Of a stretch of 64,000 nt of DNA, positions 15,759 to 60,516 are shown in pieces. Below the pieces are notes generated by a model. It searched no databases. It saw nothing but the letters and a program-made list of their open reading frames with translations, and was not told the origin of the DNA. The translations under genes were made by a program, and so were the position numbers. This stretch comes from an uncultured Candidatus Saccharibacteria bacterium. GTDB taxonomy: Bacteria > Patescibacteriota > Minisyncoccia > Phycocordibacterales > UBA918. Position 1 is the stretch's first letter, and every line of letters begins with the position of its first letter. The DNA lies in the NCBI GenBank assembly GCA_964350645.1, contig CAYGJY010000002.1:97538-161537 (forward strand). The letters are read 5' to 3'.

Positions 15759-15816
15759 AAATTAATTATAGCAGCAAGCTAGGATTTGAGAGGTACGAAC
15801 TTCCCCAGACAATCAA

Positions 15817-16779: not shown

Positions 16780-16834
16780 ATATACCAGTATAAGCTACAG
16801 CTGCTAAGTCCTGCTCTGCAATTGTTCATAATAT

Positions 16835-17581: not shown

Positions 17582-17599
17582 GCAGTAAGTATATCACTG

Positions 17600-20066: not shown

Positions 20067-20463
20067 GCTGGCGTGAGAGTGAGTTTAAGTTACTTTTACC
20101 CGCTTGAGGTACATGGCTGGCTGCCTCTAGTTGTTCAGGTTGGCCGTGATAAATACCAGAGCCAGTCTTGCGCCATAAATAGAGTTTTGATTTACGAAAA
20201 TAATTTACCATTGACTCAAGATAGATTGAGAAAGGTCGGTTGTTCACTTGGTAGAACGCGAGCAGCACTCCAAGACCCCCAAGAGGGATACCAATAATAG
20301 CAAAGATGAAAATATTGGTAGTCAGAAACAAAACCGCTGCAAATCCAAGTCCGCCACCCAAGAATAAAAATTGCTTCCAGGTAAACGGACCAAAAATTTT
20401 ATCTTCAATCTCAATAAACTGCGGTACTTCAAATCGCATAGTCACATTATACATTGAACCCAC
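20035..20463 (-). CDS. VirB3-like two-TM small membrane protein
   Basis: 142 aa; hydrophobic hairpin FLFLGGGLGFAAVLFLTTNIFIFAIIGIPLGGLGVLLAF; located immediately upstream of the VirB4-like genes, as in monoderm T4SS loci. Confidence 0.45.
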   Translation of the reverse strand: MGSMYNVTMRFEVPQFIEIEDKIFGPFTWKQFLFLGGGLGFAAVLFLTTNIFIFAIIGIPLGGLGVLLAFYQVNNRPFSIYLESMVNYFRKSKLYLWRKTGSGIYHGQPEQLEAASHVPQAGKSNLNSLSRQLELKAIQEQK

Positions 20464-20466
20464 GCA

Positions 20467-21030
20467 CTACTCAGTGGCATGGTTCGATTTATCCCCGCCT
20501 TCGGGGGCTTGGTAGTTTGGTAGACCACTAAGTAAGGGTCGTTTTTCTAGAGTGTCAGCTTGAGAAGTAGCCCTAATGACATGCTCTTCTTCAGATGTGA
20601 AGTGTTCACTGTCCCTGGTGTACCCCACTTGAGGAGTAACTCGAGCTTTTTCAGCGTCAGTCTGCATAGTGCGGACTGGCACTGGAGTACTCATTGGTAA
20701 TTCTGGCTCTGCCCCTCCGGCTGCAGTCGTTATTTGTTGTTGGTCTAAGAATTTTTTAATTTCAATGACTAACTTATCGCTCGCTTCTTTTGGAAGTTTC
20801 AAATCAGTTTCGAGCGTATCAATAATGTCGGCTAGCGAATATAAACGCAGAGCCAAATCTGACACGACTAAAACTAAATCGCGAAATAAGTTTTCAGGCA
20901 AAGCATTGGTTTCAAGAAAGTTAGTCACAAAGGTTGTGATAGTATCGGAATCAATCAGCTGCTTCAGCTCTGGCGGAGCAGCTTTGTAGGCCACGTCAAA
21001 TTCTTCCCACGAGGTGATTTTTTTTATCAT
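20467..21030 (-). CDS. Hypothetical cytoplasmic protein in the T4SS-like cluster
   Basis: Start taken at MIKKITSW to avoid a 61 bp overlap (ORF track 20467..21093); no recognisable motifs. Confidence 0.4.
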   Translation of the reverse strand: MIKKITSWEEFDVAYKAAPPELKQLIDSDTITTFVTNFLETNALPENLFRDLVLVVSDLALRLYSLADIIDTLETDLKLPKEASDKLVIEIKKFLDQQQITTAAGGAEPELPMSTPVPVRTMQTDAEKARVTPQVGYTRDSEHFTSEEEHVIRATSQADTLEKRPLLSGLPNYQAPEGGDKSNHATE

Positions 21031-21032
21031 AG

Positions 21033-23063
21033 TTAGGTATTTTGTAGGTTCAAGCGAGCTGCTAGTGGTGTATGCTTCTCCCAGCTTTGCCATTGTTTCG
21101 TGTAGGCACCAGGACCACTTGGGCTCAATCGATCCAGAAGAATTTGATTGTCAATATTTTTCGACATAGTCTGGAGGTCTGGATCAGCGATTTTACCGTC
21201 TTTCATCTTAGCTTCGACCATAGTTGGCGTGAGATGAGGGGCCATGGCCGCATCAGTGAATACTTCGTCAGGCATTTTGGCAAACTCTTTGCTACCACGT
21301 TGAGCTAAGAGCTGGCGTTGGGTTTGGGTACCCACCATCTGGTTGCCACGCGTGCCCGTAGTGGCTACTTGTTTCATAGCTTTTTTCTTGGCAGTTTTGA
21401 TGTCACCAATTTGTTGGTCAGAGTATTTGCCAGTTTTTTCGAGATCATCAATTTGATCAGCAGAGAGATGCAGGGCTACCTCTTCTTTGGTCAGGATATT
21501 GATATCCATGTCTTTCATTTGTTCGGTTGTTAAGTCACCGATTGCGCTGACCATATCTTTTAGTTGGTCAGCTGTCGGAGTTGTCCCACCAGTAGGATTA
21601 ATAACAGTATCAATGTCAGTCAAGCGTTTATTTTCTGCTGCTTTTTGAGTGGTACGTTTTTGTCGTTCTTCTCTAAAGTTGTCGATATCACCCAAAGAAC
21701 GGTGTAGACCCTCTGGCTTCCAATTTTCCCACATATCGGTATGTTCGAGTACGAGGTGATCAGCCTCTGTGGCTTTAACAGCAGAACGTGCAAAATCCCC
21801 GATTTTACTTCCCGTTCCAGCTGCACTACTACGTGATTGCCAATTTTTGAGACCTTTCCCAACTGCCCCGGCGGTACGTCCAACTGCCCAACGCCGTATT
21901 CCTCGGTCTGGGAAGCGGGCCATATAACTCGCTTGACGCATGATCCGGTCCCCGCCGTTTTTGGTCATGGTGTAGGCGGCGTTGGCACCATAGGCACCCA
22001 TCATTTGAGCGACCTTGAGTGAAGCAACCAGGAAACCAGTTACTAAAAAGAAGTACAAGATGATCATGAATGCTCCATTTGAAGCTGCGTTTTGTTCATA
22101 TGCTTCTGCAAATGTGCCGTTTACTCCAATTCCACTGAGAGCCCAGAGTGAGAGATAGAGCATAAATAAATAGGCCGGCGCTACAAACGCGTATTTTAAA
22201 AATTTTGTCCACCACTCCTTACCCTGCTTGGCGGCCAAAGGAGACATCAGCCCCAAAAACATCATGGGCGAGAGAATCATAAATATAATTAGGGCAATAA
22301 AGCGACCAATCAAAATCACCGCCCCAGAAGCAAAGACAAAGCCAGCAAAAATCATAAAAAACATCATGAGAATACCAAACATGATAAAGCGACCAGAAAT
22401 GAAATCTGTTTCACCGCGGATATTTTCGAGCAATGAGCCGTCGGCGAAAGACGGTAGTTTGGTGGCATTCATAAAAGCGGCGGTCACACTTTTTTGGTCA
22501 GCGCCACCAAACGTGACTGTTGTCGCTCCGCCTTCATCACCACCTGAAACAGTGATAGTGCTGGTATCAGCGGCGACGTTGGCCATCATTGCCGTGTGGA
22601 TTTGAAAAGCAGCAATATTTGAGAAATCGATGATGGCTTTGGTGATGAACAAGCTAAAGTTGATCATCAGCGCGGCAATGATCAGATATCCGAGAGCTTT
22701 TTTGGTACTTGTGTCATTTGAAAATAAAATAGTACGAAAACCGATGTAGATTAAACCAAAAATGAAGAAGATATTAAATAAATCCCTCACTACTACCCAG
22801 AGCTCGTCTACTACTACTCCTAGATTTGCTTCTAGATAATTCCCCATGCCAATGACTAAGTAGATCACCGTGTAATCAAGCAGGCTACCTCCTACCCATA
22901 AAAATAGTCCTCCAAAACCAACACAGATTGTGTACAGAAAAGAACCTACTGATGTGGGAATACTATCTGCATATACAGGTGTGGTGCAGCCGATAATAAG
23001 CACACAACAAAACAGTAGTTTAAGTAGTAGTCGAGTAGTTTTTTTAGAAACAGAAATACGCAT
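21033..23063 (-). CDS. VirB6/TrbL-like polytopic membrane protein with long hydrophilic C-terminal domain
   Basis: 676 aa; signal/TM N-terminus, at least 6 TM helices in the first ~370 aa, then a charged coiled-coil-like tail. This architecture resembles monoderm VirB6 homologs. Confidence 0.55.
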   Translation of the reverse strand: MRISVSKKTTRLLLKLLFCCVLIIGCTTPVYADSIPTSVGSFLYTICVGFGGLFLWVGGSLLDYTVIYLVIGMGNYLEANLGVVVDELWVVVRDLFNIFFIFGLIYIGFRTILFSNDTSTKKALGYLIIAALMINFSLFITKAIIDFSNIAAFQIHTAMMANVAADTSTITVSGGDEGGATTVTFGGADQKSVTAAFMNATKLPSFADGSLLENIRGETDFISGRFIMFGILMMFFMIFAGFVFASGAVILIGRFIALIIFMILSPMMFLGLMSPLAAKQGKEWWTKFLKYAFVAPAYLFMLYLSLWALSGIGVNGTFAEAYEQNAASNGAFMIILYFFLVTGFLVASLKVAQMMGAYGANAAYTMTKNGGDRIMRQASYMARFPDRGIRRWAVGRTAGAVGKGLKNWQSRSSAAGTGSKIGDFARSAVKATEADHLVLEHTDMWENWKPEGLHRSLGDIDNFREERQKRTTQKAAENKRLTDIDTVINPTGGTTPTADQLKDMVSAIGDLTTEQMKDMDINILTKEEVALHLSADQIDDLEKTGKYSDQQIGDIKTAKKKAMKQVATTGTRGNQMVGTQTQRQLLAQRGSKEFAKMPDEVFTDAAMAPHLTPTMVEAKMKDGKIADPDLQTMSKNIDNQILLDRLSPSGPGAYTKQWQSWEKHTPLAARLNLQNT

Positions 23064-23065
23064 AA

Positions 23066-24547
23066 CTAAATTCCATTAAGTAACCGGTCACATCGCGATT
23101 CTTCATTTTGAAGAGCTTCATCAAAATCTCGTAGTTCTACGTCCATGAGAATTATTTCTAAATTGACTTCTGCTTGAGCCACCTCAACTTGCGAAGCAGC
23201 GGCAGTGTCAAACTGAATTTGACGGGCAGCTAGCGTGAGATCGAGTTGAGCTTGCGTCGTCGTCGCTTGATTGTATGCTCGCTGGACCCGCCGTAGGTCG
23301 ACGATTACTTGGTTGATTAGAGGGATGATCTCGACCGCTTCAGTACGGGCATCGGTATAGACAGGTGGTAATTCGGCGTTGAAGCAAACAGGGTACTGCT
23401 CTTCTAGGTCTTCTATGCGAGTTTCTTGGCGATCAACAAAGGCAATGGTTTGGTTCATGACTCGTCGGTAGTTTTGCTGGGTAGTAATTGCATCTTGAAT
23501 CGGGTCGCCACCAGTTGCGACAGCACCGCTTGTTTCAGTCTGCGTTCGTTCAAGGAGGGTCGGTCCGGCGCCACTTTCTCCGCGGTAGGCGTAGGCTGAG
23601 TTTCCGCCAGCGCCAAGTAGACCTCCAACCCCAGTAATCAGCGTACTACCAAATTGTGCCAAGACCGCACCGACAAGTTCATTAAATTCATCAGCAAAGG
23701 CCAATTTCTGACCAGGGATACCTAAATATTGATTAAATTGTGTTTCGACTAAGCCTCCCGGAGTGGTGACTGTACAATTATTGATTGAGCCACTAAGAGA
23801 GACACCTTCCTCACAGATCTGAATATTTTTGAAAAACTTATTGGCTTTGAGAATTTCAAATTCACCATCTCGTGTGCGTAGAACAATCGCGTCACGCTCA
23901 GCACTTGCATTTAAGAAAGCTTTGTTAGGGTCATTGTTAGCCCCTTGGGTTAGTTCAAACCAACCAGCCCAACCGCCTTCAGCAAAGTTTCCGTTAAGGA
24001 AGTTTTCCATATTGCCAACAACATCAGATAAGGTACATTGCGGCTCATAGCCATCTGCACCATAGTATTGCAAGCTGAGCGCGATGCGAATGTCGAGCTC
24101 AAAGGGACTACACAAAAATCCAAGTTCACTACCATTAATAAATCGTCCAACAGCTTCGTCGACAACATCAGTAAGGAAGCCTTCAATGTTGGTGACAAAT
24201 GCCGGACTACCTTGGAAGCCTGAGTTGACCCAGGCAGTCAGCGAGGTCAGCATGTTGGAAATCAAGGCGTTCGCTAGACCCCAGAAGAGTGGGTCTAAAA
24301 TATTTTCTTTAACCCACTCGTCGTATTCGTATATTTGGATAGCCACGTCAGCAATGGCTGAGATAGTTGATTCAACCGAAGTTTTAACGTTGTTAGCAAA
24401 GTTGAGGACATCTTTAACCGTGAAAGCTTCGGCTGGTTCCACGTATACTACTTTGGTATGCGATAAAGGTGAGGCAGCCACCATAATAGCTACCACCAAA
24501 ACTGAAGCAATGTAGGAGGTGACGTTTTTGTAGTGGAAGAGATTCAT
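23066..24547 (-). CDS. Secreted hypothetical protein (signal peptide, C-terminal coiled coil)
   Basis: 493 aa, N-terminal hydrophobic signal VLVVAIMVAASPLS. Confidence 0.5.
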   Translation of the reverse strand: MNLFHYKNVTSYIASVLVVAIMVAASPLSHTKVVYVEPAEAFTVKDVLNFANNVKTSVESTISAIADVAIQIYEYDEWVKENILDPLFWGLANALISNMLTSLTAWVNSGFQGSPAFVTNIEGFLTDVVDEAVGRFINGSELGFLCSPFELDIRIALSLQYYGADGYEPQCTLSDVVGNMENFLNGNFAEGGWAGWFELTQGANNDPNKAFLNASAERDAIVLRTRDGEFEILKANKFFKNIQICEEGVSLSGSINNCTVTTPGGLVETQFNQYLGIPGQKLAFADEFNELVGAVLAQFGSTLITGVGGLLGAGGNSAYAYRGESGAGPTLLERTQTETSGAVATGGDPIQDAITTQQNYRRVMNQTIAFVDRQETRIEDLEEQYPVCFNAELPPVYTDARTEAVEIIPLINQVIVDLRRVQRAYNQATTTQAQLDLTLAARQIQFDTAAASQVEVAQAEVNLEIILMDVELRDFDEALQNEESRCDRLLNGI

Positions 24548-24552
24548 ATGTA

Positions 24553-25461
24553 TTACCAGAGATTAATGAACCCAAAAACTTGGCGGGCTAGGTCATTTTC
24601 TTTATAGGAAATACCCTCCCCTTCGAGGTTGGTGTAGAGATTAACGAGGGCATAGTAGAGACCCTTGGTGTCATCTTGATAGCGTTTCAGTCGTGTCATG
24701 GTGTAAAGCGGATCAGTAAATGATGCTTCCATAGCTGCGATGTCGATCGCTAGCGCATTGTAAGCATTAAGGAGGTAGACGTGATCGTCAGCTAGTGAGC
24801 GAGGAACCTCTAAGGTCAGCATATCGCCAAGCATCCCTTCGTATGATTTTTTAATAGGAGCAAGCTTGGCTAAGGTTTCAGGGTTGTTGCGTTCGACTGC
24901 CTGTTTTGTAATCAGCGCCTCATTCTCAGTTTCAACTGGGACAGCGTGTACCAAAGCAATTTCAGCGACTTTATTGCCGTAAGCAAAGAGTGCTTCGCGG
25001 TTGGTGTCATCAATGACGGCTATGTCCCTAAACGTATATAGGTCGTCAACAGCCGCAGCTTGGATTTGCTTCTCAAAATTATCAACAATCTGACCTTGTT
25101 GTTCATCAAACACACCATACTGCTTAGCTTCGACGGTATCTTTGAAAAGAGCGATTGCCATTTGTCCCGTCAGTGTGTCTGGTGGAGTGTAGGTACCGGC
25201 TGTCGTTGTGCCTGAATCAAGAGAAATTGTTTGCACCGTACGCAGTGTTTCTCGCCAATCAGCAATGCCATTGTTATTTGCGTCAGCGATGGCGATATAA
25301 CTCCGCTCTGGGGCAGCCGCCACTATTACAGCAGCTGATGCCGGAGTACTTTTTTCTGTGACGACACCATAAAGTGAGGCTGAGATCAGACCAGCTCCAA
25401 TAACAAATGCACCTAAAATCTTGGCGTTCATAAACGGTAGTCTCAGTATAACAGTCGCCAC
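24553..25461 (-). CDS. Membrane-anchored extracytoplasmic protein (hypothetical; positional VirB8-like candidate)
   Basis: 302 aa (or start at MNAKILGAF, 25431); one N-terminal TM then a roughly 270 aa soluble domain; first gene of the cluster. Confidence 0.4.
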   Translation of the reverse strand: MATVILRLPFMNAKILGAFVIGAGLISASLYGVVTEKSTPASAAVIVAAAPERSYIAIADANNNGIADWRETLRTVQTISLDSGTTTAGTYTPPDTLTGQMAIALFKDTVEAKQYGVFDEQQGQIVDNFEKQIQAAAVDDLYTFRDIAVIDDTNREALFAYGNKVAEIALVHAVPVETENEALITKQAVERNNPETLAKLAPIKKSYEGMLGDMLTLEVPRSLADDHVYLLNAYNALAIDIAAMEASFTDPLYTMTRLKRYQDDTKGLYYALVNLYTNLEGEGISYKENDLARQVFGFINLW

Positions 25462-43068: not shown

Positions 43069-46000
43069 CTATTCTTGGGTTAAATATTCCTTATGATGTT
43101 TAGGAATGAAGTGTTTGAGACCGCCGATGTGTTGTGAGTATTCGATGGCATCGATGAAAGCGCGTGCTAGTTTTATGTCATTAATAAGAGTGATGCCCGC
43201 ATCGACTGATTTGCGACGGATGGCAAAGCCATCCGTCTTTTCCTTCCGATTACGCTTGTTATGAGTATTGATGACCAAATCAATCGTGCCGGATTCAATT
43301 AGTGAAATGGTGTGGGGCTCCCCTTCAGATAATTTGTTGATGCAAAGTGCTTGCACAGCATGCTCACCAAGGACACGACAAGTGCCGTGAGTTGCGTAGA
43401 TTGGAAGTTTAAGCGTGTTTAGTTTTTTGGCGTATTTTACAAACTCAAGTTTTTCTTCATCTTCCCCGAGTGAAATAAGAACTCCTTTTTTAGGTAGCGG
43501 ATTGCCGGCTGCGACAAAGGCGTGCAAAAAAGCTTCTTGTTTGGTGTCACCAAAAGCAGCGACTTCACCAGTTGAGGCCATCTCAACTCCTAAGGTTGGG
43601 TCAGCTCCTTTCAAACGAGAGAAAGAGAACTGTGGCACTTTGATCCCAACGTGATCGAGATCGATTGTGTGGTAACGGCCTGAGATATCGATCCCCAGAA
43701 AAGCCTGTGTCGCCAGGTCGATAAAGTTGTAACCGGTTACCTTGCTGACAAAGGGAAAAGAGCGACTGGCACGTAAGTTACACTCAATCACTTTGATGTT
43801 GTTATCTCGAGCGAGAAACTGAATATTGAATGGTCCGGTGATATTGAGTTCTTTGACGATTTTCTTAGCAGCCGTTTTTATTTGACGCATGGTTTCAACG
43901 TAGATTTGCTGGGGTGGCAACATCACTGAAGCATCGCCCGAGTGTACGCCAGCATTTTGAATGTGTTCACTGATAGCGTAAATCTGCAACTTGCCATTTT
44001 GGGCGACGCCGTCGATTTCAATTTCCTTGGCACCGTCTTCAAACTTAGAAACTACCACTGGGTGCTCTTTTGAAACATCGCCAGCTTTCTCAAGAAAGCC
44101 TTGAAGTTCACTTTCTGAATAACAAATGCGCATAGCAGCACCAGAGAGTACGTAGGAGGGTCGGACAATTACTGGATACCCTACTCGTTTAGCAAAATCG
44201 AAAGATGTTTTGGTTGAGGTTGACTCAGCCCAAAGTGGTTGATCGATCTCGAGTGTATCTAAGAGGGCTGAGAATTTATTGCGGTTCTCAGCACGGTCAA
44301 TGTCATCAGCATCAGTTCCCATGATCGGAATACCGGCCGCCTTAAGCTTGGTAGCGATATTGTTGGCCACTTGTCCACCCATGCTGATGACGACGCCGTC
44401 TGGTTTTTCAGCTTCGCAAATATCTCGGATGCGCTCGACACTAATCTCATCAAAATACAGGGAGTCGCACATGTCGTAGTCAGTTGAGACGGTCTCAGGG
44501 TTGTAGTTGAGCATGATGGTGCTATGGCCGAGTCGCGTCAGGGTTTTGACGACGTTCACACATGACCAGTCAAACTCAACTGATGAACCAATACAGTAGG
44601 GTCCCGAACCAATTACCATGATTTTTTGCTTCCCTTTTTTGGGGCTAGTCGGAGTGATATCGTGTTCGCTCGCTTGATAGGTGCTGTAGAGGTAGTTGGT
44701 TTTAGCTGGGAATTCAGCAGCGAGGGTGTCGATTTGTTTGATGGCTGGTAGTAGGTTTTGCTTGCGTCGCTTTTGGTAGACTTGCTCTTCAGTATGGCTA
44801 GTCAGTTCACTGATGCGGCGGTCAGAAAAACCAGTTTGTTTGGCTTCTAGTAAAAGTGTTGCTGAAAGTGTCTTAGCATTGGCTAACTTTTCCTTCACGA
44901 CATATATATGATGCAGTTTTTCCAAAAACCACCGATCAATCTTCGTGAGCTTATAAATATCTTCTACACTCATTCCTTCTTCAAATCCACGAGCAATCGC
45001 AAACATCCGTTTGTGGGTTGGTTCAGACAAAGCTTTTTTGAGGTTAGGTGCATTGTAGGTGAGATCGGTAAAGCCATCGGCACCAATCTGGAGACAGCGG
45101 ATTGCTTTTTGGATGGCTTCTTCGAAGTTACGACCAATCGCCATTACCTCTCCGACTGATTTCATTTCGGTGCCGATGCGCGCATCAACCGCGTCAAATT
45201 TTTCTAAGTCCCAACGTGGGTACTTCACTACTAAATAGTCGAGTGATGGTTCGAAAAAAGAATTGGTTTCTTTGGTGATGGCGTTTGGGATGTCTTTCAT
45301 CAGATAGCCAAGCCCGATCTTCGCTGCGACAAACGCGAGTGGATAGCCGGTGGCTTTTGAGGCCAAGGCTGAAGAGCGTGAGAGACGGGCATTGAGCTCG
45401 ATTACTTTGTATTGGCGTGAATGAGGATCTAAGGTGAACTGTACATTACACTCCCCGACAATCCCAAAGTGCCGCACGATTTTGAGTGCAGCAGAACGCA
45501 ACATGTGATACTCGTGGTTGTCTAAGGTTTGTGATGGTGAGACAACGATACTCTCGCCAGTGTGAATGCCGAGCGGGTCAAAGTTTTCCATGTTACAGAC
45601 CGCGATCGCGTTGTCGTCTTTATCACGCACGAGTTCATATTCAAGTTCTTTCCAGCCAGTCAGGTTTTCTTCGACCAACACTTGCGGTGAGTGAGAAAAC
45701 GCTTTATCTAAAATTGCTCCGAGTTCAGTCTCATTGTCTGCCCGACCAGAACCAAGTCCGCCAAGTGCAAAGGCAGCGCGGATCAAGACTGGATACCCCA
45801 TTTTCTCCACTGCCTTCATGGCAGCCGCTTTGTTACGACACGGAATACTCTTTGGAAATGGAATGCCGATCTTCTTTAGCTCAGCATTAAATTTCTTCCG
45901 ATCTTCCGTCGCGTCAATTACAGCGACTGGCGTGCCTAAGACAGTGACGTTATATTTTTTGAGAATACCCTTCTTCTCGAGTTCAATGCCACAATTGAGG

Positions 46001-46299
46001 GCGGTTTGTCCACCAAAAGAGAGAAAAATTCCTTCTGGTCTTTCTCGTTCAATAACCTTCGTTACATACTCAAGCGTGACCGGAAGAAAGTACACTTTGT
46101 CGGCGAAGTCGGGGTCAGTCTGGACGGTCGCGATGTTCGGGTTGATGACGACCCCTTCAATGCCTTCTTCTTTTAAGGCTTTGAGAGCTTGGCTACCCGA
46201 GTAATCAAACTCCCCCGCTTGGCCGATCCGTAAACCACCTGATCCCAAGACGAGCACTTTCTTGATGTTTTTTGGAATCGTGTAGGCGGTCTTTTGCAT
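43069..46299 (-). CDS. carB: Carbamoyl-phosphate synthase large subunit
   Basis: 1076 aa, duplicated ATP-grasp halves, MGS-like C-terminus. Confidence 0.95.
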   Translation of the reverse strand: MQKTAYTIPKNIKKVLVLGSGGLRIGQAGEFDYSGSQALKALKEEGIEGVVINPNIATVQTDPDFADKVYFLPVTLEYVTKVIERERPEGIFLSFGGQTALNCGIELEKKGILKKYNVTVLGTPVAVIDATEDRKKFNAELKKIGIPFPKSIPCRNKAAAMKAVEKMGYPVLIRAAFALGGLGSGRADNETELGAILDKAFSHSPQVLVEENLTGWKELEYELVRDKDDNAIAVCNMENFDPLGIHTGESIVVSPSQTLDNHEYHMLRSAALKIVRHFGIVGECNVQFTLDPHSRQYKVIELNARLSRSSALASKATGYPLAFVAAKIGLGYLMKDIPNAITKETNSFFEPSLDYLVVKYPRWDLEKFDAVDARIGTEMKSVGEVMAIGRNFEEAIQKAIRCLQIGADGFTDLTYNAPNLKKALSEPTHKRMFAIARGFEEGMSVEDIYKLTKIDRWFLEKLHHIYVVKEKLANAKTLSATLLLEAKQTGFSDRRISELTSHTEEQVYQKRRKQNLLPAIKQIDTLAAEFPAKTNYLYSTYQASEHDITPTSPKKGKQKIMVIGSGPYCIGSSVEFDWSCVNVVKTLTRLGHSTIMLNYNPETVSTDYDMCDSLYFDEISVERIRDICEAEKPDGVVISMGGQVANNIATKLKAAGIPIMGTDADDIDRAENRNKFSALLDTLEIDQPLWAESTSTKTSFDFAKRVGYPVIVRPSYVLSGAAMRICYSESELQGFLEKAGDVSKEHPVVVSKFEDGAKEIEIDGVAQNGKLQIYAISEHIQNAGVHSGDASVMLPPQQIYVETMRQIKTAAKKIVKELNITGPFNIQFLARDNNIKVIECNLRASRSFPFVSKVTGYNFIDLATQAFLGIDISGRYHTIDLDHVGIKVPQFSFSRLKGADPTLGVEMASTGEVAAFGDTKQEAFLHAFVAAGNPLPKKGVLISLGEDEEKLEFVKYAKKLNTLKLPIYATHGTCRVLGEHAVQALCINKLSEGEPHTISLIESGTIDLVINTHNKRNRKEKTDGFAIRRKSVDAGITLINDIKLARAFIDAIEYSQHIGGLKHFIPKHHKEYLTQE

Positions 46300-46303
46300 A
46301 AAA

Positions 46304-47443
46304 TTATTTGGCTAAGGAATCAATAAATGTTTGGAATAAATACTGAGCATCTTCTGGACCAGGGAAACTTTCTGGATGAAACTGCACAGCGCGAGCTGGT
46401 CGGTCAGTAAACTGCACGCCCTCGATTGATTCATCATGTAAATTGATGAACCACGGTTTGATGTTTTTCGGTAAGGTTTTTTCTTGCACCGCAAAACCGT
46501 GGTTTTGTGAGGTGATGATGCAGTGCTTGGTGTCGACATCCATGCAGGGCTGGTTTTGCCCGCGGTGTCCGTATGGTAGCTTGGCGGTTTTAGCACCACC
46601 GGCGAGTGAGAGGATTTGGTTCCCAAGGCAAATGCCAAAGATTGGTAGCTTCGCTTCAAGTGCTTTAGCTACTTCTTTGATCAGCGGTGTGTTCATCGCT
46701 GGGTTCCCTGGTCCGTTCGGGAGAAAGAGGGCGTCGAACCGGAGCACACCTGATTGTCGCTCCTCCATAAAGTGATAATCAGACGGCACACGGATGATGG
46801 TTGTATCAAACTTTAGCAGGTTACGGATGATATTGAGCTTCACGCCGGTGTCAGGGAGACAGATTCTAATGTTGCCGCTGCCGTACTCAGTCACTTCTTT
46901 GATTGAGACTTGGCTAACCAAATCTTCAGTGTCAGTATTGCGTACCCATTTTTGTTGAACGGTTTTACTTGGTAGTTTCCCCACATAGATTTTCCCTGGC
47001 ATTGCCCCAGTCTCCCGAATCTTTTGCACAATCGTTCGGGTATCAATCCCGCTGATGGCGGGTACCTGGTGTTCTTTGAGCCAGTCGCCAAGAGATTGTT
47101 CTTCAGTAAAGTGACTAGGGGTGTTTTGGTATTCGCTCACTACCAGTCCAGTGACATGAATCTCGTCTGATTCAAAGTATTCGCGGAGGCCAAACGCAGA
47201 AACGGCATTCCAATCAGGAATGCCGTAGGTGCCTTGGAGTGGATACGTCGTGACGAGGATTTGCCCACGGTACGACGGGTCGGTCAGTGTCTCTGGGTAA
47301 CCGGCCATGCCAGTGTTGAAAACTACCTCCCCCTCCACGCCATCCTTTGGAGAATAACCAAAGCTAGTACCCTCATAGGTTGTTCCGTCTTTCAGTACCA
47401 GCCAAGCGCGACTCATTAAGTCCCAAGTATAGCGTAGGGGCAA
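46304..47443 (-). CDS. carA: Carbamoyl-phosphate synthase small subunit (glutamine amidotransferase)
   Basis: 379 aa; GATase GICLGNQ, HPE. Confidence 0.9.
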   Translation of the reverse strand: MPLRYTWDLMSRAWLVLKDGTTYEGTSFGYSPKDGVEGEVVFNTGMAGYPETLTDPSYRGQILVTTYPLQGTYGIPDWNAVSAFGLREYFESDEIHVTGLVVSEYQNTPSHFTEEQSLGDWLKEHQVPAISGIDTRTIVQKIRETGAMPGKIYVGKLPSKTVQQKWVRNTDTEDLVSQVSIKEVTEYGSGNIRICLPDTGVKLNIIRNLLKFDTTIIRVPSDYHFMEERQSGVLRFDALFLPNGPGNPAMNTPLIKEVAKALEAKLPIFGICLGNQILSLAGGAKTAKLPYGHRGQNQPCMDVDTKHCIITSQNHGFAVQEKTLPKNIKPWFINLHDESIEGVQFTDRPARAVQFHPESFPGPEDAQYLFQTFIDSLAK

Positions 47444-53041: not shown

Positions 53042-53704
53042 ATGGTTCGAGATGAAGAAAAGTACCAGTTAGCAACGTATTATCGCAAACGCGGTTTTAC
53101 CTATGCTGAGATAGCTAAAATATGTAACGTATCTAAAGGAACCGTGAGTACCTGGTTGGCTAAAAAAGCTTTTTCTAAGAAAGTAAAAAAAGATAATCTT
53201 GTTCGTGCGGGTAAAGATAATGCTAAGCGGGTTAGCCTTCTCAATAAAGCACGCCAAACCGAACGCGCTGCCCGCTATAAAGAAGCAGAGCGATCAGCAG
53301 TGACAGAATACCGACACTATAAGAGTGACCCCTTTTTCATGGCGGCCTTGATGATTTACGACTTGTCAGGCGATACAAGAGATCTCTCGCGGATTCGTCT
53401 GACTTGTAAATCAATGTCAGCTCATCGCATTTTTATAAAGTTTCTACACCAATATCTTGGGGTAGAAAAAAATTTGGTTACGTGCTGGTTGATCATTCCG
53501 GCTAATGTGTCAGAGAAAACTGCATTATTTGCTTGGCAGAAGGTTACTAAGTTACCAGCCAGTCAGTTTGGTAAAACACAAATTTTGAAACAGACTGCCA
53601 ATACGTTGCACAATGGCACGGGAAATACTATAATCGGCAACACTGTTTTGAAGCGCAAGCTAGTAACATGGCTTGAATTAGCGACAAAAGAGCTCAGTAA
53701 ATAA
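53042..53704 (+). CDS. HTH-domain DNA-binding protein (hypothetical)
   Basis: 220 aa; N-terminal HTH YYRKRGFTYAEIAKICNVSKGTVSTWL; ends 2 bp before tRNA-Gly. Confidence 0.45.
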   Translation: MVRDEEKYQLATYYRKRGFTYAEIAKICNVSKGTVSTWLAKKAFSKKVKKDNLVRAGKDNAKRVSLLNKARQTERAARYKEAERSAVTEYRHYKSDPFFMAALMIYDLSGDTRDLSRIRLTCKSMSAHRIFIKFLHQYLGVEKNLVTCWLIIPANVSEKTALFAWQKVTKLPASQFGKTQILKQTANTLHNGTGNTIIGNTVLKRKLVTWLELATKELSK

Positions 53705-53706
53705 AC

Positions 53707-53777
53707 GCGGCCATGGTTAAGTGGTATAACGGGTCCTTGCCAAGGATCAGTCGGGGTTTCGATTACCCCTGGCCGCA
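53707..53777 (+). tRNA. tRNA-Gly (anticodon GCC)
   Basis: Manual fold: acceptor GCGGCCA/TGGCCGC, D-stem GTTA/TAAC, anticodon loop TTGCCAA, T-arm GGGGT-TTCGATT-ACCCC; terminator hairpin at 53788..53815. Confidence 0.7.
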
Positions 53778-53887
53778 CACATTGAAAAAGATCAGGATTT
53801 GTCCTGGTCTTTTTCATTTCTGGCCGGCAATCGAAAATTAAACATAATGTAACCATCTGTAAGTAGATCTGGTATTATGATACGACT

Positions 53888-55039
53888 ATGGCTCGAGTTG
53901 CAATTACGGAGTATGCCGCCAAAAAATTGATATTTGGTGATGATTATCACGGGCTGACAGTTACCCCGAACACCGCTGATGATCTTAAGGTACCAACCGG
54001 AAAATACATTGTAAAAATCGATGTTGGGATCAAAAAACGCGGAAAACAAGGCTTAGTTCGACTTAACGTAGCTGCAGAAGATGTGCCTTCAGCAGCTAAT
54101 GAGCTTTTTGCGCTTGGCTACGATCGTTGTGTCGTGGAGGTGATGGTGCCACATGAAACAGATGAGGAGCGATATCTTTCGCTTGATGTGCACCGGACTG
54201 GCTTGCAGTTGATCCACTCTGAAAAAGGCGGGGTTGAGATTGAGGCGGCGGCTGAAGCTGATATCAAGCGGACGCTCGTGGCTTTGCAGGAATTTTTGAG
54301 CGGCACACCGTCGATCTCGATCGACGGTGTGCCGCTCCCCTACTTACTCGAAAAAATGGCAGAGCATCATTTTTCTTTTTTAGAGATAAATCCCTACCTG
54401 GTTGTAGAAGACAAGCTGGTAGCGCTTGATATGGCGGTTGAGATTGATTCAACTAAAGAAAACAAGCTGCCAGCGTGGGTGCATGAACATATTTTGCATA
54501 AAAAAGCGGCGAGTGAACAAGAAGCGCGCGTACTCGAACAAGATGCGCGCACCCAAGCCGCCCTTAATTTACATACCCTTAATCCAAATGGTTCGATTTT
54601 AACGTTACTCTCTGGCGGTGGCGCGAGCTTAGTTGGGCTCGATTCTCTCGTCACTGCTGGTCTGCAAGATCAGGTGATCAATTACAGTGAGTATAGTGGC
54701 GCTCCAACCCGGGATGAAACCGCTGTATACGTTGCTACGTTACTTGAAGTACTTTTCAATTCTACCTCTAAAAATAAGGTTATTTTGGTCGCCGGCGGGG
54801 TCGCAAACTTTACCGATGTACTTGCGACCTTCCAGGGAATTGTCGATGCGTTTACTGACAATCTTGAACAATTACAGGCGCAAAACGTGTACGTCTGTGT
54901 CCGACGTGGTGGTCCAAATCAAGAGAATGGCCTGGCTCATCTACGCGACTGGCTTGATCAGCATGATATTCCTAATGATGTCCACGACCCTTCCCTCTCG
55001 CTCGGTGAAGTCGGTAATTTAGTAACAAAACATCTATGA
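53888..55039 (+). CDS. aclB: ATP-citrate lyase beta (small, ATP-grasp) subunit
   Basis: 383 aa; matches ACL/SucC-like N-terminal half of ACLY: YLEINPYLVV, LLSGGGASLV, NYSEYSGAP, VAGGVANFTDVLATFQGI, VRRGGPNQENGL. Confidence 0.8.
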   Translation: MARVAITEYAAKKLIFGDDYHGLTVTPNTADDLKVPTGKYIVKIDVGIKKRGKQGLVRLNVAAEDVPSAANELFALGYDRCVVEVMVPHETDEERYLSLDVHRTGLQLIHSEKGGVEIEAAAEADIKRTLVALQEFLSGTPSISIDGVPLPYLLEKMAEHHFSFLEINPYLVVEDKLVALDMAVEIDSTKENKLPAWVHEHILHKKAASEQEARVLEQDARTQAALNLHTLNPNGSILTLLSGGGASLVGLDSLVTAGLQDQVINYSEYSGAPTRDETAVYVATLLEVLFNSTSKNKVILVAGGVANFTDVLATFQGIVDAFTDNLEQLQAQNVYVCVRRGGPNQENGLAHLRDWLDQHDIPNDVHDPSLSLGEVGNLVTKHL

Positions 55040-56760
55040 TCAACGACATTCGCACTAGTGAGCCGAAGATTTTAGTAGCCGGTAATCACGTCAAGATCAT
55101 TCAATCGATGCTGGATTTTGACTACGCTGCAGGGAAAGAATCACCGAGTGTGGTGGGGATTATTTCGGCCGGCCGTAAAACTCAAAAGTTTTTCTGGGGC
55201 GATGGTGAGATCTTGGTGCCGGTAGTGCCCGACGTTGAGGCAGCAAAAAAGGCTTCATTTGAGCCAGATTTCCTGCTTTGTATCACTTCGGCTTCGAGTA
55301 CACCACGGATGGTCGAGGCATTTTTTGCTGCGTTCCCAGCAGCTGTCGGCGCCCATCTCTTCGCTGAAGGGGTGGCCGAGCGCGATGCGCTTCAGTTGAT
55401 CGAAGCGTATGGCGAAGAGAAGCTTATTCTCGGTGCTTCGGGGGTTGGTCTTTGTGTACCAGGCAGCCTTAAACTAGGCGCTATTGGCGGTATTCTGGGT
55501 CCACGACTGGCTGAACTAGGTCGAACTCGTGGTCACACGGCGGTGATTTGCAGTTCTGGTGGTATGGTCAACGAACTTATGTACCAGGTCGTTGCTGCCG
55601 GCAGTGGGATTAGTTTTGCGGCTTGTTACGGAGGCGACCGTTTCCCTGTCACTTCCCCGCTACAGTGGCTTACACAAGCTCAAAACGACCCGGAGACCAA
55701 AGATATTGTCTACTTTGGGGAATTGGGTGGTGACGATGAGTATACGCTTCGAGACGCCATTAAGGCTGGCAATATCACTAAGCCAGTCTATGCCTATATT
55801 GCTGGCCGCTACGAAAGTCAGGATGAAACAATCCAGTTTGGCCATGCTAAAGCCCTCGCTAAAGCAGAATCAGAGACAGCGGCGGCTAAAATGGCTGCTT
55901 TGGCTGCTGTCGGAGTGAACGTCAGCGATACATTTAATGATTTTATGGCTACGTTCGCCTCGCTTTCACGTGAAACTAGCGTTGGCGAGTCAGTTCGGGA
56001 CTGGAATGAACGCCCGGCTCATCTACAGCCGACTGTCTATTCTGCCCCGGCGTATACTGGCGCCCATGCGGCCAGCTTTACCGAAGGTATTTTGGCTCGC
56101 ATTCTCGGTCGCAGCAGTGTTTCACGGGAAACCGCTGACTTTGCTGACTTGATCTTTGCGCAGTTGATCGACCATGGACCACATGTGTCTGGAGCGGTAA
56201 ATACTATGATTACTACTCGAGCTGGCCGTGACCTAAGCTCGGCCCTGGCTACGGGTGTCCTGACAGTTGGTGATCGCTTTGGTGGCGCTATCAATGGTGC
56301 CGCTCAGATTTGGCACGATGCTGTTTCACGTGGCATCACTGCCGATGAGCTGGTGGCAGACTACAGCCAGCAGCGCCAGTATATTTTAGGCATTGGACAC
56401 CGAAAATACTCAGTGTATAAGCCAGATCCGCGCGTACAAGCCTTGATTGAGCATGGTAAAAATGTTCTACGTGAAACACCTCACCTTGATTTTGCCCTGT
56501 CAGTGGAGACAATCACCGCTAAAAAGCGCGCTAACCTGATTTTAAATGTAGATGGTGTTATTTCAGCTCTATTTACGGACTATTTGATTGCCAAAGAAGA
56601 CTTTACTGCTGAAGACATTGCTGAACTTATCGATATTGAGTTTTATAATGCTCTGTTCCTCATTCCTCGTTCGGTGGGGTTTGTCGGAAATTATCTCGAT
56701 CAAAAACGCATTGACGAAGGATTGTTTCGTTTGGGCGACAAAGATAGCTATAATTTTTAG
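55036..56760 (+). CDS. aclA: ATP-citrate lyase alpha (large) subunit: CoA-binding/phospho-His domain plus citrate-synthase-like domain
   Basis: 574 aa; catalytic-His loop ETIQFGHAKALAKAESETAAAKMAAL (cf. ACLY [25 protein letters not shown]); C-terminal LGIGHRKYSVYKPDPRVQAL (cf. GFGHRVKSINNPDMRVQIL). ATGA overlap with aclB. Confidence 0.8.
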   Translation: MINDIRTSEPKILVAGNHVKIIQSMLDFDYAAGKESPSVVGIISAGRKTQKFFWGDGEILVPVVPDVEAAKKASFEPDFLLCITSASSTPRMVEAFFAAFPAAVGAHLFAEGVAERDALQLIEAYGEEKLILGASGVGLCVPGSLKLGAIGGILGPRLAELGRTRGHTAVICSSGGMVNELMYQVVAAGSGISFAACYGGDRFPVTSPLQWLTQAQNDPETKDIVYFGELGGDDEYTLRDAIKAGNITKPVYAYIAGRYESQDETIQFGHAKALAKAESETAAAKMAALAAVGVNVSDTFNDFMATFASLSRETSVGESVRDWNERPAHLQPTVYSAPAYTGAHAASFTEGILARILGRSSVSRETADFADLIFAQLIDHGPHVSGAVNTMITTRAGRDLSSALATGVLTVGDRFGGAINGAAQIWHDAVSRGITADELVADYSQQRQYILGIGHRKYSVYKPDPRVQALIEHGKNVLRETPHLDFALSVETITAKKRANLILNVDGVISALFTDYLIAKEDFTAEDIAELIDIEFYNALFLIPRSVGFVGNYLDQKRIDEGLFRLGDKDSYNF

Positions 56761-56779
56761 TTCGGTACTAGCAATACTG

Positions 56780-56823
56780 CCACGTGAAATGGCCGGAAGC
56801 TTTGCTTCCGGCCATTTCACGTG
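56780..56823. terminator. Long perfect hairpin between convergent aclA and def. Its arms are parS half-site-like (CACGTGAAAT/ATTTCACGTG).
   Basis: ccacgtgaaatggccggaagc-ttt-gcttccggccatttcacgtgg. Confidence 0.6.
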
Positions 56824-56831
56824 TAACTCCC

Positions 56832-57353
56832 CTATTTCCCCCGCACGTGCTTAAGGTAGTATTCACGACTTACTAAACTCTGTGGATCAGCTAAGTCAGT
56901 AAAAAGAATTCCATTGAGGTGATTAACTTCATGTTGGATTACTCGAGCGAGCAAACCAGTAGCAGACATTTCACGTGAAACGCCTTTTTGGTCTAAATAT
57001 TTCAAAGTAATAGCAATGGATCGCTCAACTTTTCCAAATAAGCCAGGAATTGAGCCACATCCTTCCCAGTCAAGCGTTGTTTCACGTGAAAAGTCGGTAA
57101 TTTCTGGATTTATATACACCCGAAGTTCGTCAGTTATTCCCTTGCGAAACTTAGTTTCACGAATTTCTGTGACAATAATCTGCTTCGATACATTAAGCTG
57201 GGGCGCAGACAGTCCGATCAACTCTTCTCCTCGCATCGTATCAACAAGATCAGTAATGTAAGACTGAATTTTATCGGAATCTTGATTTGAAACTTCCTTA
57301 GCTGTTTCACGTAGAACCGCTTCACCAATTAGAACGCTAGGTTTAATAGACAT
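56832..57353 (-). CDS. def: Peptide deformylase
   Basis: 173 aa; GLSAPQ, EGCGSIPG, QHEVNHLNG (HExxH). Confidence 0.85.
   Translation of the reverse strand: MSIKPSVLIGEAVLRETAKEVSNQDSDKIQSYITDLVDTMRGEELIGLSAPQLNVSKQIIVTEIRETKFRKGITDELRVYINPEITDFSRETTLDWEGCGSIPGLFGKVERSIAITLKYLDQKGVSREMSATGLLARVIQHEVNHLNGILFTDLADPQSLVSREYYLKHVRGK
56967..56982. promoter_or_regulatory. parS-like site (13/16 to TGTTTCACGTGAAACA), inside def
   Basis: cattTCACGTGAAACg. Confidence 0.6.
57078..57093. promoter_or_regulatory. parS-like site (14/16), inside def
   Basis: TGTTTCACGTGAAAag. Confidence 0.65.
57303..57318. promoter_or_regulatory. parS-like site (13/16), inside the def 5' region
   Basis: TGTTTCACGTagAACc. 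Confidence 0.55.
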
Positions 57354-57406
57354 ATTCGGAGTATAACAAACTTTCTATCTTGATGTTTCCCGTGTAACAT
57401 AAGGAT

Positions 57407-58081
57407 ATGCTGAGCTTGTTAGCGGTAGTAATCATATATACGTTTGTCTTTGGTGTTGATTATTTGCGCTACCGGTCCAACCCGCTGACCTACCAGTATG
57501 TTTCACGTAGAACATACCTACTGTTTTTAGTCGGTATTCTCCCGATCATATACCTATTTTATACTGATTTTGAATCTTTTTTTGAGCATATTTATACTGA
57601 AATAGCCTTAATATCGCTATTACTAGCAATGATGTTGTTATTTAGCTATCTACTCAGCCGTGAGAGACTGCTTGTGTGTCATACATCGTCACGTACAGAA
57701 CGATGCTTAACGGCAGGTTATGTCCTTACTAAAGGTAAAGAGATTATGTTTCAACAGTTTTGTTACGCTGGGGTAGCCTTTTCTTTGGTTACTCTACTCG
57801 GGAGTGGTTTTTGGACCTACGTAGGCTATATAGTAATACTACTTATCATGCACACTCCTGTTATTTTGAGCATGAATGTTTCGGCAGCTAGTCGCCTAAC
57901 ATTAGGGATTCTAGTAATGGCCGCCCCACTTTTCTATATATTTATAGAGGTCCAACACTTTTGGCCCTCTATGTATTTACACGCATTGCTGTACGTATTT
58001 CTGTGGTTAACCTTTGCCGACTGGGAAGGAAAAATCATTCATGTTTCACATGAAACTAATAAAGTGGATAAGTGGGGATAA
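57407..58081 (+). CDS. Polytopic membrane protein (hypothetical)
   Basis: 224 aa, about 6 TM helices; contains two parS-like sites in its coding sequence. Confidence 0.5.
   Translation: MLSLLAVVIIYTFVFGVDYLRYRSNPLTYQYVSRRTYLLFLVGILPIIYLFYTDFESFFEHIYTEIALISLLLAMMLLFSYLLSRERLLVCHTSSRTERCLTAGYVLTKGKEIMFQQFCYAGVAFSLVTLLGSGFWTYVGYIVILLIMHTPVILSMNVSAASRLTLGILVMAAPLFYIFIEVQHFWPSMYLHALLYVFLWLTFADWEGKIIHVSHETNKVDKWG
57499..57514. promoter_or_regulatory. parS-like site (14/16)
   Basis: TGTTTCACGTagAACA. Confidence 0.6.
58043..58058. promoter_or_regulatory. parS-like site (14/16)
   Basis: TGTTTCACaTGAAACt. Confidence 0.6.
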
Positions 58082-58191
58082 CTGCGGGGATAGGTGGATA
58101 AAGGACAGTACTTAACAATACGAGTATTATACAAATACGCTTTAAAATATAGGTTTTAGTTATTTAATTCAGTCTTTTTAACAAAAACATA

Positions 58192-58207
58192 CGTTTCACG
58201 TGAAACA
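58192..58207. promoter_or_regulatory. parS site (15/16), intergenic upstream of yraN
   Basis: cGTTTCACGTGAAACA. Confidence 0.7.
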
Positions 58208-59679: not shown

Positions 59680-60516
59680 ATGGCCGATAAACAACGTGCG
59701 GCTCTGGAAGCCGCCATCGAAGCTGCATGGGAAGCCCGCGATACGATCACCCCCGCCACAAGGGGCGATCAGCGCGACGCCATCGAGGCAACGCTGGAGG
59801 CGCTGGACAAGGGCGCGCTGCGTGTCGCGGAACGTCAGGCGGACGGCACATGGCATGTGAACCAGTGGGCCAAGAAGGCCGTTCTGCTGGGGTTCCGGAT
59901 CAAGGACATGGAAATGCAGTCCGGCGGCCCGCAGGGCGGCGGCTGGTGGGACAAGGTCGACAGCAAGTTTGCCGGATGGGGCGATGCGCAGTGGAAATCC
60001 GCCGGGTTCCGTGCCGTTCCCAACTGCATCGTGCGCAAGTCCGCCTATATCGCCAAGGGCGTGGTTCTGATGCCGTCTTTCGTCAATCTCGGCGCCCATG
60101 TCGGCGAGGGGACGATGGTCGACACCTGGGCCACGGTCGGGTCTTGCGCGCAGATCGGCAAGAATGTGCATCTGTCCGGCGGTGTCGGCATCGGCGGGGT
60201 GCTGGAGCCGATGCAGGCCGGGCCGACGATCATCGAGGACAACTGTTTCATCGGTGCGCGGTCCGAGGTTGTCGAAGGCTGCATCGTGCGCGAGGGATCG
60301 GTGCTCGGCATGGGCGTCTATATCGGCCAGTCCACCAAGATCGTTGACCGGGAAACCGGCAAATTCACTTATGGCGAGGTGCCCGCCGGGTCTGTCGTCG
60401 TGTCCGGCTCACTGCCGTCCAAGAACGGTGTGAACCTTTATTGCGCGGTGATCGTGAAGCGGGTGGATGCGCAGACCCGGTCGAAAACTTCGATCAACGA
60501 GCTACTGCGCGACTGA
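59680..60516 (+). CDS. dapD: 2,3,4,5-tetrahydropyridine-2,6-dicarboxylate N-succinyltransferase, alphaproteobacterial type
   Basis: 278 aa; about 65% GC. N-terminus [21 protein letters not shown]...[23 protein letters not shown]... and hexapeptide-repeat left-handed beta-helix region. Strongly resembles Rhodobacterales-type DapD. Confidence 0.8.

Follow-up and report, generated by a model that had tools for sequence, protein, structure and literature searches.

A compact two-subunit ATP-citrate lyase from a Saccharibacteria contig, probably supplying acetyl-CoA from citrate outside the reductive tricarboxylic acid cycle

The closest described relatives of the gene pair reported here are the ATP-citrate lyases (ACL) of Methanothrix soehngenii/Methanosaeta concilii (PDB 6hxi, 6znw) and of human (ACLY; 6hxh, 6qfb, 3mwd), which share one domain order: ATP-grasp, citrate-binding, CoA-binding, CoA-ligase with a phospho-histidine, and citryl-CoA-lyase. 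Human ACLY is a single fused chain, whereas the pair described here, aclBA, is encoded as two polypeptides whose genes overlap by an ATGA. It lies at positions 53888-56760 of a 64,000-nucleotide stretch (the window) of contig CAYGJY010000002.1, assigned to an uncultured Candidatus Saccharibacteria bacterium. The AclBA of Chlorobium limicola and other Chlorobiaceae (6hxj) has the same aclB-aclA two-subunit arrangement, domains and reaction, but works within a complete reductive tricarboxylic acid (rTCA) cycle, of which there is no sign around the window pair. In Hydrogenobacter thermophilus the same overall chemistry is carried out in two steps by homologous modules, citryl-CoA synthetase (CCS) and citryl-CoA lyase (CCL; 6hxq, 6hxp), CCL being a separate polypeptide. 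Succinyl-CoA synthetase (SucCD) belongs to the same superfamily, with an ATP-grasp beta subunit and a CoA-ligase alpha subunit carrying a phospho-histidine loop, and its genes are adjacent and overlapping in E. coli too, but it lacks the lyase domain and the citrate-binding domain of ACL. Among Patescibacteria, a group of reduced metabolism also known as the candidate phyla radiation (CPR), a two-subunit ACL was described in Gracilibacterium by Sieber et al. in 2019, with the proposal that external citrate is turned into acetyl-CoA plus oxaloacetate (PMC6851277). A groundwater study of 2025 names aclAB in a single sentence among the genes enriched in Saccharimonadia metagenome-assembled genomes (MAGs) (PMC12577380), and other papers discuss ACL in DPANN archaea and how it relates to the eukaryotic enzyme (PMC11976288, PMC8091004). 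ACL in Saccharibacteria and other Patescibacteria has thus already been reported, and the window pair is a further member.

The first gene, aclB (53888-55039, plus strand), encodes a small (beta) subunit of 383 amino acids with a compact ATP-grasp and a citrate-binding domain. The second, aclA (55036-56760, plus strand), encodes a large (alpha) subunit of 574 amino acids, in which a CoA-binding/CoA-ligase module with a phospho-histidine loop is joined by a short linker to a citryl-CoA-lyase domain homologous to citrate synthase. Both open reading frames (ORFs) stand exactly where a first-pass annotation of the window had placed them, and its identification of a two-subunit ACL (EC 2.3.3.8) of the heteromeric AclAB type was confirmed by domain architecture, residue alignment, structure prediction and phylogeny. 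AclB matched the Pfam family Citrate_bind PF16114 (2e-46; 158 bits against a cut-off of 26.8). In AclA, a single ORF, Ligase_CoA PF00549 and Succ_CoA_lig PF13607 covered residues 165-307 and Citrate_synt PF00285 residues 344-557. A phmmer search of PDB sequences ranked human ACLY first for AclA (E = 1.8e-98, 334 bits; a two-domain alignment spanning human residues 497-806 and 871-1086), followed by Methanothrix ACLY-B (8e-89, 302 bits) and, much more weakly, Chlorobium AclA (4e-53, 184 bits). For AclB the best matches were Methanothrix ACLY-A (6hxi_A, 2.4e-44) and human ACLY (1.3e-43), both at 153-155 bits, with Chlorobium ACL again lower (2.5e-30, 109 bits). The window proteins are only about 31-35% identical to the Methanothrix and human enzymes.

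Since ACL, SucCD and CCS/CCL share a superfamily, and since some relatives of the pair carry the database labels 'succinyl-CoA synthetase alpha/beta subunit' or 'citrate/2-methylcitrate synthase', a SucCD or CCS/CCL relative mis-called as ACL had to be considered. The scores speak against it. AclA matched SucD at best at 9e-21, the CCS small subunit at 4e-16 (62 bits) and CCL at 1.5e-15 (60 bits), and AclB matched the CCS large subunit at 1e-11 (48 bits). The NCBIfam equivalogs were missed by wide margins: SucC NF001913 scored 61 bits against a cut-off of 370, SucD NF004230 104.5 against 336, and the citryl-CoA lyase models 46-75 against 193-409. SucCD was therefore rejected on these scores together with the lyase domain and an outgroup-rooted tree that separates ACL from SucD. 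The lyase domain is moreover fused to the alpha subunit, which together with the low scores excludes CCS/CCL, and the beta subunit carries the ACL-specific PF16114. The first-pass annotation had kept a citryl-CoA synthetase/lyase relative in reserve, and this hedge can be dropped; a mis-call of either kind is hardly credible.

Structure prediction led to the same enzymes. AlphaFold models were made of the monomers only and compared with solved structures by Foldseek. The AclB model (pLDDT 93.4) showed a full predicted ATP-grasp fold, and its best matches were human ACLY (5tdm_A, 2.6e-34) and Methanothrix ACL (6hxi_C, 1.3e-33). The AclA model had a pLDDT of 76.7, and its only low-confidence parts were the mobile phospho-histidine loop, the linker and those loops that in solved ACLs are found at subunit or tetramer interfaces; its best matches were again human ACLY (7rig_A, 2.4e-43) and Methanothrix ACL (6znw_B, 1.2e-42). 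For both models the human and Methanothrix enzymes ranked above Chlorobium ACL, CCS and SucCD. Global TM-scores were only about 0.5 because the inter-domain orientation differs in monomer models; module by module the superposition was good, with a root-mean-square deviation of about 3 Å over about 305 residues for the AclA ligase module.

Residue equivalents were read off printed alignments to human ACLY (3mwd_A for AclB). Alignment and conservation were computed, and we take the functional roles to be those given to the human residues in the ACLY structure papers. In the AclA ligase site, E111 corresponds to human E599 and H270 to the phospho-histidine H760. The lyase residues H380, H455, R456, D506, R545 and R565 correspond to H900, H975, R976, D1026, R1065 and R1085 without gaps, at a constant offset of 520, and the citrate-synthase-like domain thus keeps its catalytic residues. 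These AclA positions were invariant in an alignment of 17 members of the Patescibacteria clade described below, except R456, which is R, K or L among them. In AclB the ATP/Mg site (K43, R51, E94, N168 and D181 for human K58, R66, E118, N203 and D216) and the citrate site (G243-245 for G281-283, S270-G271 for S308-G309, N307-F308-T309 for N346-F347-T348, and R340 for R379) were invariant in 33 clade members. No catalytic or citrate-binding residue that was compared with human ACLY has thus been lost in the window pair.

The two AclA motifs quoted in the first-pass annotation were both located, QFGHAKA at residues 267-273 (window 55834-55854), with the phospho-histidine H270, and the citrate-synthase-like motif GIGHRKYSVYKPDPRVQAL at residues 452-470. 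The phospho-histidine loop differs from that of the Methanothrix and human enzymes in reading GHAKA instead of GHAGA. GHAKA was found in 14 of 16 Patescibacteria clade members (among related proteins P0001-P0120 and P0241-P0247), whereas the other sampled ACLs and SucD have GHAG[A/S] or a close variant and none has Lys at this position. The change from Gly to Lys, specific to the clade and located two positions beyond the catalytic histidine, might indicate that phosphotransfer is modified to suit a compact enzyme. Further signatures of the clade are GIGH[RK]KY and a C-terminal DEGLFRL. The subunits are indeed compact. Compared with known ACL small subunits, AclB lacks about 40 residues (383 vs 421-425 amino acids), owing to loop deletions, and its N-terminus aligns from residue 1. 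AclA is about 50 residues shorter (574 vs 631), mostly because its ligase and lyase modules are joined by a linker of about 35 residues, where human ACLY has about 65. These sizes hold throughout the clade (AclB about 376-390 and AclA 570-605 amino acids). Comparison with the orthologues of one related locus (L002, 94% identical) gave dN/dS values of 0.13 for aclB and 0.06 for aclA, and both genes are under strong purifying selection. A pseudogene or decaying gene was rejected on these values, the intact ORFs and the presence of orthologues in hundreds of species.

The distribution of the pair was surveyed with one genome per GTDB species, and relatives were found at 404 loci, of which the best 80 were examined by label, the labels of MAGs being taken as deposited. 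Nearly all of these 80 were labeled Saccharibacteria/Saccharimonadales, Paceibacterota, Kaiserbacteria, Parcubacteria or 'Patescibacteria group'. The first-pass annotation had called ACL rare among bacteria other than a few autotrophic lineages; this needs updating, since relatives occur across 404 GTDB species and the best-matching loci are nearly all from Patescibacteria. An exhaustive search of representatives returned only 117 clusters at E<=1e-30. The gene order is fixed: in every one of the 78 related loci with upstream sequence, aclB preceded an aclA of the same orientation, with a gap of at most 100 nucleotides in 76, and an overlap of 4 nucleotides (-4) was the commonest junction (34/78). 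Six loci (L004, L030, L039, L057, L060 and L063) are contigs with a Patescibacteria-type ACL labeled 'Gammaproteobacteria' or 'Candidatus Azotimanducaceae'; they are probably mis-binned or mislabeled Patescibacteria contigs, and could inflate the apparent rTCA potential of those groups.

The evolutionary position of AclA was assessed with a neighbor-joining tree of 64 full-length alpha-type sequences with E. coli SucD as the outgroup (540 columns, Kimura distances, 100 bootstraps). The tree is distance-based, and CCS and CCL, which are not in it, were excluded by scores instead. The ACLs were monophyletic and split from SucD at 100% bootstrap, so that the pair does not fall inside SucCD, a placement that the first-pass annotation had proposed to check. 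After one early-branching sequence (P0339) a Chlorobiaceae pair branched first (99%), at the base of the ACL tree and away from the Patescibacteria. The window AclA lay deep inside a 16-member clade with 100% bootstrap, the named members of which are Patescibacteria (Dojkabacteria, Pacebacteria, Nomurabacteria). Among the nearest neighbors of this clade are a second Saccharibacteria lineage and an archaeon of the DPANN (Norongarragalinales), joined at deep nodes with support below 35%. The ACL of Gracilibacterium, described as archaeal-like with the canonical GHAGA loop (PMC6851277), is set apart by this description and probably lies outside the GHAKA clade.

The window itself has the gene content of a typical Patescibacteria genome, with ruvB, ruvC, tyrS, a class A penicillin-binding protein (PBP), dnaN, dnaA, yidC, ksgA, pcrA/uvrD, polynucleotide phosphorylase, xerC, carAB, CCA enzyme, def, dapD and corA, besides a cluster with a type IV secretion system (T4SS)-like pilin and TraG that includes many ORFs without a family. 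Its nearest genome match (94%) is a 408-kb contig from an uncultured Candidatus Saccharibacteria bacterium, which shares the order of the genes for the CCA enzyme, a helix-turn-helix (HTH) protein, UPF0102 and CorA. A binning or contamination artefact was rejected on this synteny, on the position of aclBA within one contiguous window with CPR-type genes (dnaA, dnaN, the T4SS-like cluster, PBP), and on a protein database entry that has the identical AclA on a contig of 449,760 bp.

ACL is the classical marker of the rTCA cycle and the enzyme appears catalytically intact, so a role in cleaving citrate for autotrophic CO2 fixation, of the kind it has in Chlorobium, Campylobacterota and Nitrospira, was an obvious explanation to weigh. 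The gene neighborhood does not fit it. No other TCA or rTCA gene occurred among the approximately 60 annotated ORFs of the window, as the first-pass annotation had observed, nor among the recurrent neighbors of the related loci, which are housekeeping, pilus, cell-wall and acetyltransferase genes. Searches by tblastn of the window and the 81 related loci (1.26 Mb) with E. coli SdhAB, SucAB, AcnB, Icd, FumA/C and Mdh gave no match, and the GltA and SucC queries matched only the ACL genes themselves. This negative covers the window and the 81 loci, and no reference sequence of 2-oxoglutarate:ferredoxin oxidoreductase (OGOR) or pyruvate:ferredoxin oxidoreductase (PFOR) was among the queries. With genomes of about 1 Mb, Patescibacteria are reported in published reconstructions to be without a TCA cycle (PMC6031116). 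In addition, by the scores given above, AclA is much closer to the non-autotrophic eukaryote/Methanothrix type than to Chlorobium. A role in an rTCA cycle is accordingly very improbable, and citrate cleavage outside such a cycle, which had also been proposed from the sequence, is supported by the neighborhood, although its direction in vivo is a matter of inference.

The same tblastn searches with E. coli Pck, AspC, AckA, GlmU, CitT and CitEF gave no match. Genes linked to acetyl-CoA, on the other hand, recurred next to aclBA. In 23 loci the gene for a GNAT acetyltransferase of a family recognized by Pfam (c6, about 146 amino acids; e.g. L026:1907-2347) directly precedes aclB in the same orientation, in most cases no more than 13 nucleotides from it, and in another 13 loci the same slot is held by a family of about 207 amino acids without a Pfam or NCBIfam match (c7; e.g. 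L019:4983-5612). As hhalign related c7 to c6 with 95% probability (E 1.9e-8), and all PDB profile matches of c7 were N-acetyltransferases, c7 is by its profile a divergent GNAT. Together the two families, which look unrelated, occupy the slot in about 36 of the 78 loci (within L014-L081), forming an apparent GNAT-aclB-aclA operon. A gene for phosphate acetyltransferase (pta) abuts aclB in two of the 78 (L041:5910-6719 and L017:5851-6711, both on the minus strand), its product being 34-36% identical to the C-terminal domain of E. coli Pta (E about 1e-40), and glmS lies about 0.1-1.9 kb from aclBA in 9-10 loci. Saccharibacteria genomes are reported to be without pyruvate dehydrogenase (PDH) and PFOR, and 'acetyl-CoA metabolism appears to be lacking' (PMC6031116). 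Because of the GNAT/pta/glmS linkage, the lack of TCA context and this published lack of PDH and PFOR, we favor a supply of acetyl-CoA: the pair probably encodes a functional heteromeric ACL that cleaves host or environmental citrate to acetyl-CoA, with oxaloacetate as by-product, and that serves no rTCA cycle.

The chemistry of such an enzyme can be proposed from homology to the solved structures, and what is said of function beyond that homology is proposed rather than shown. The ATP-grasp domain of AclB would phosphorylate His270 on the mobile loop of AclA, and the phosphoryl group would pass to citrate in the AclB citrate-binding domain to give citryl-phosphate. Attack by CoA would then yield citryl-CoA, which the C-terminal lyase domain of AclA (His380, His455, Asp506) would cleave to acetyl-CoA and oxaloacetate. 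The acetyl-CoA could be used by N-acetyltransferases, for the acetylation of cell-wall amino sugars and, in some lineages, by Pta. This role, the formation of acetyl-CoA from citrate outside a TCA cycle, would mirror that of cytosolic ACLY in eukaryotes.

Two other uses of the enzyme were weighed against this supply role. One is the reverse reaction, in which citrate would be made with a gain of ATP by substrate-level phosphorylation (acetyl-CoA + oxaloacetate + ADP + Pi -> citrate + ATP + CoA), as described for Desulfobacter postgatei. The reaction is reversible in principle, the organisms depend on substrate-level phosphorylation, and the pta gene adjacent in two loci points to acetyl-CoA/acetyl-phosphate chemistry in some lineages. 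The reverse reaction needs stoichiometric acetyl-CoA and oxaloacetate, however, for neither of which these organisms have a known source; no downstream citrate-using enzyme was seen by tblastn in the window and the 81 loci, and the operon link to acetyl-CoA-consuming GNATs suits a producer of acetyl-CoA better. We regard this use as improbable. The other is catabolism of citrate for energy and carbon, in which acetyl-CoA would be converted through acetyl-phosphate to acetate and ATP, and oxaloacetate through pyruvate or malate to fermentation products. It had been suggested in the first-pass annotation and, for Gracilibacterium, by Sieber et al. (PMC6851277), and it would agree with pta standing directly beside aclB in L017 and L041. 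ACL followed by Pta-AckA is, however, ATP-neutral, and no ackA, mdh, pck or gene for an oxaloacetate-converting enzyme was seen in the 1.26 Mb. Moreover, linkage to pta (2/78 loci) is far rarer than linkage to a GNAT (about 36/78). Bacterial citrate fermenters use the ATP-independent CitDEF lyase, which also counts against a catabolic role. We consider such a role unlikely, though it overlaps with the supply of acetyl-CoA: both involve one reaction running the same way, and they are told apart only by what becomes of its products.

Several points weigh against the acetyl-CoA supply proposed here. The phospho-histidine loop has Lys where the other sampled ACLs and SucD have Gly, which may affect catalysis. 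The ATP-grasp model Citrate_synth_N PF24948 scored 74 bits in AclB, just under its cut-off of 83. This score and the short AclB prompted us to consider a degenerate ATP-grasp domain, which was rejected since the N-terminus and all nucleotide and Mg ligands align, the shortening consists of loop deletions, the length is constant in the clade and the model is confident. The subclade of the window (L001-L009) has no linkage to GNAT, pta or glmS, its upstream slot being held by an HTH protein and a tRNA-Gly, so that the guilt-by-association evidence comes from more distant relatives. A citrate transporter was not found in the window or the flanks, in which the only transporters seen were a DMT/EamA transporter, CorA and, elsewhere, an AI-2E-family transporter. 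The survey for citrate transporters and oxaloacetate consumers that had been suggested at the outset thus yielded none in the window and the 81 loci, the rest of the genome lying outside it. The 64-kb window is only part of a contig of at least 450 kb, and the statement that TCA genes, oxaloacetate consumers and further sources of acetyl-CoA are absent holds for the sequence covered and not for the whole genome.

The expression of the pair was considered from direct reading of the sequence. At the junction, the ATG of aclA (55036-55038) and the TGA of aclB (55037-55039) form an ATGA start/stop overlap (55036-55039, plus strand), as noted earlier, implying translational coupling of the two genes. 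No obvious Shine-Dalgarno sequence was evident before aclB or before aclA; the aclBA transcript may have little or no leader, and the start of aclA probably relies on the ATGA coupling. A tRNA-Gly(GCC) gene (53707-53778) lies directly 5' of the aclB intergenic region (53785-53887, plus strand). This region begins with a terminator-like hairpin (about 53785-53816), listed on the minus strand by the terminator scan, which is followed by an A+T-rich spacer of about 70 nucleotides up to the aclB start codon. The spacer contains an extended -10-like element TGnTATTAT (53870-53878) ending 9 nucleotides 5' of the aclB ATG. The scan listed no full -35/-10 pair in 53785-53887, where a promoter for aclBA is presumed by inference only. 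The peptide deformylase gene def (56832-57353, minus strand) is convergent with aclA at its 3' side. The other ORFs inside the operon, on either strand and including the antisense ones, were rejected as genes; they are short shadow ORFs, and their counterparts turn up repeatedly in related loci only because they mirror the conserved acl genes. Upstream of the tRNA-Gly and aclB, an ORF of 220 amino acids (53042-53704, plus strand) has an N-terminal HTH domain (HTH_23/sigma-70 region 4-like) and is kept in L002-L008 of the window's subclade with 52-70% identity. It could encode a regulator or be the remnant of a mobile element, to which a weak similarity to the N-terminal region of IS3/IS21 transposases would point.

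The first-pass annotation had placed the pair between a tRNA gene and a parS cluster. The tRNA-Gly is just upstream, but the parS array does not start 3' of the operon, since three of its ten sites are inside aclA. The ten parS-like sites (55962-58207) match TGTTTCACGTGAAACA with at most 3 mismatches, where 0.39 were expected and none of 100 shuffles reached ten. The three 16-mers in the aclA coding sequence, starting at 55962, 56118 and 56463 (55962-56478, no strand assigned), each encode an in-frame [LV][SL]RET peptide; of the others, three lie in def, two in a membrane-protein ORF and two in intergenic sequence. The arrangement of 2-4 sites inside aclA with further sites downstream is kept in L002-L009 and not in more distant loci, and dnaA is about 44 kb away from the array. 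Loading of ParB over a metabolic operon could affect the expression of aclBA.

Some other features of the window bear on its metabolism and lifestyle. DapD, a tetrahydrodipicolinate N-succinyltransferase (59680-60516, plus strand; TIGR00965 equivalog, 420 bits against a cut-off of 375), requires succinyl-CoA, yet no succinyl-CoA synthetase or 2-oxoglutarate dehydrogenase was found in the sequence covered. A complete carbamoyl-phosphate synthetase is encoded by carB (1076 amino acids) and carA (379 amino acids) at 43069-47443 (minus strand), a notable biosynthetic capacity for a reduced genome; that carAB together with aspartate derived from oxaloacetate feeds pyrimidine synthesis is speculative. 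A same-strand cluster (13685-25461, minus strand) encodes a T4SS-pilin-like protein and a TraG/VirB4-like P-loop ATPase (17600-19438), adjoins yidC, dnaA and dnaN, and also holds about eight large ORFs (220-676 amino acids) without a Pfam match. To judge from its gene content, it may represent a conjugation-like or host-interaction apparatus.

In the literature searched, no description was found of a Patescibacteria-wide GHAKA clade, of its compact size or of its linkage to GNAT, pta and glmS genes. Neither the Gracilibacterium study (PMC6851277) nor the groundwater study (PMC12577380) describes the clade signatures, the compact size, these linkages or the parS overlap. With its compact subunits and GHAKA loop the enzyme offers a natural minimal ACL for comparison with ACLY, a human drug target. 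For genome-based ecology, aclAB in Patescibacteria bins is not to be counted as evidence of carbon fixation by the rTCA cycle. Published reconstructions show Saccharibacteria and many other Patescibacteria without PDH and PFOR. Acetyl groups are nevertheless required by these bacteria to make peptidoglycan precursors and to acetylate proteins or small molecules, and an ACL working on scavenged citrate would close the gap in their acetyl-CoA metabolism and name citrate as a host-derived metabolite. It is possible, though doubtful at present, that a large fraction of Saccharimonadia and Paceibacteria obtain their acetyl-CoA mainly, perhaps solely, from GHAKA ACLs that are fed by host citrate and wired by their operons to GNATs. 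If this were true, these enzymes would be a prokaryotic counterpart of the eukaryotic axis from ACLY to acetylation, and host citrate would be a key currency of episymbiosis.

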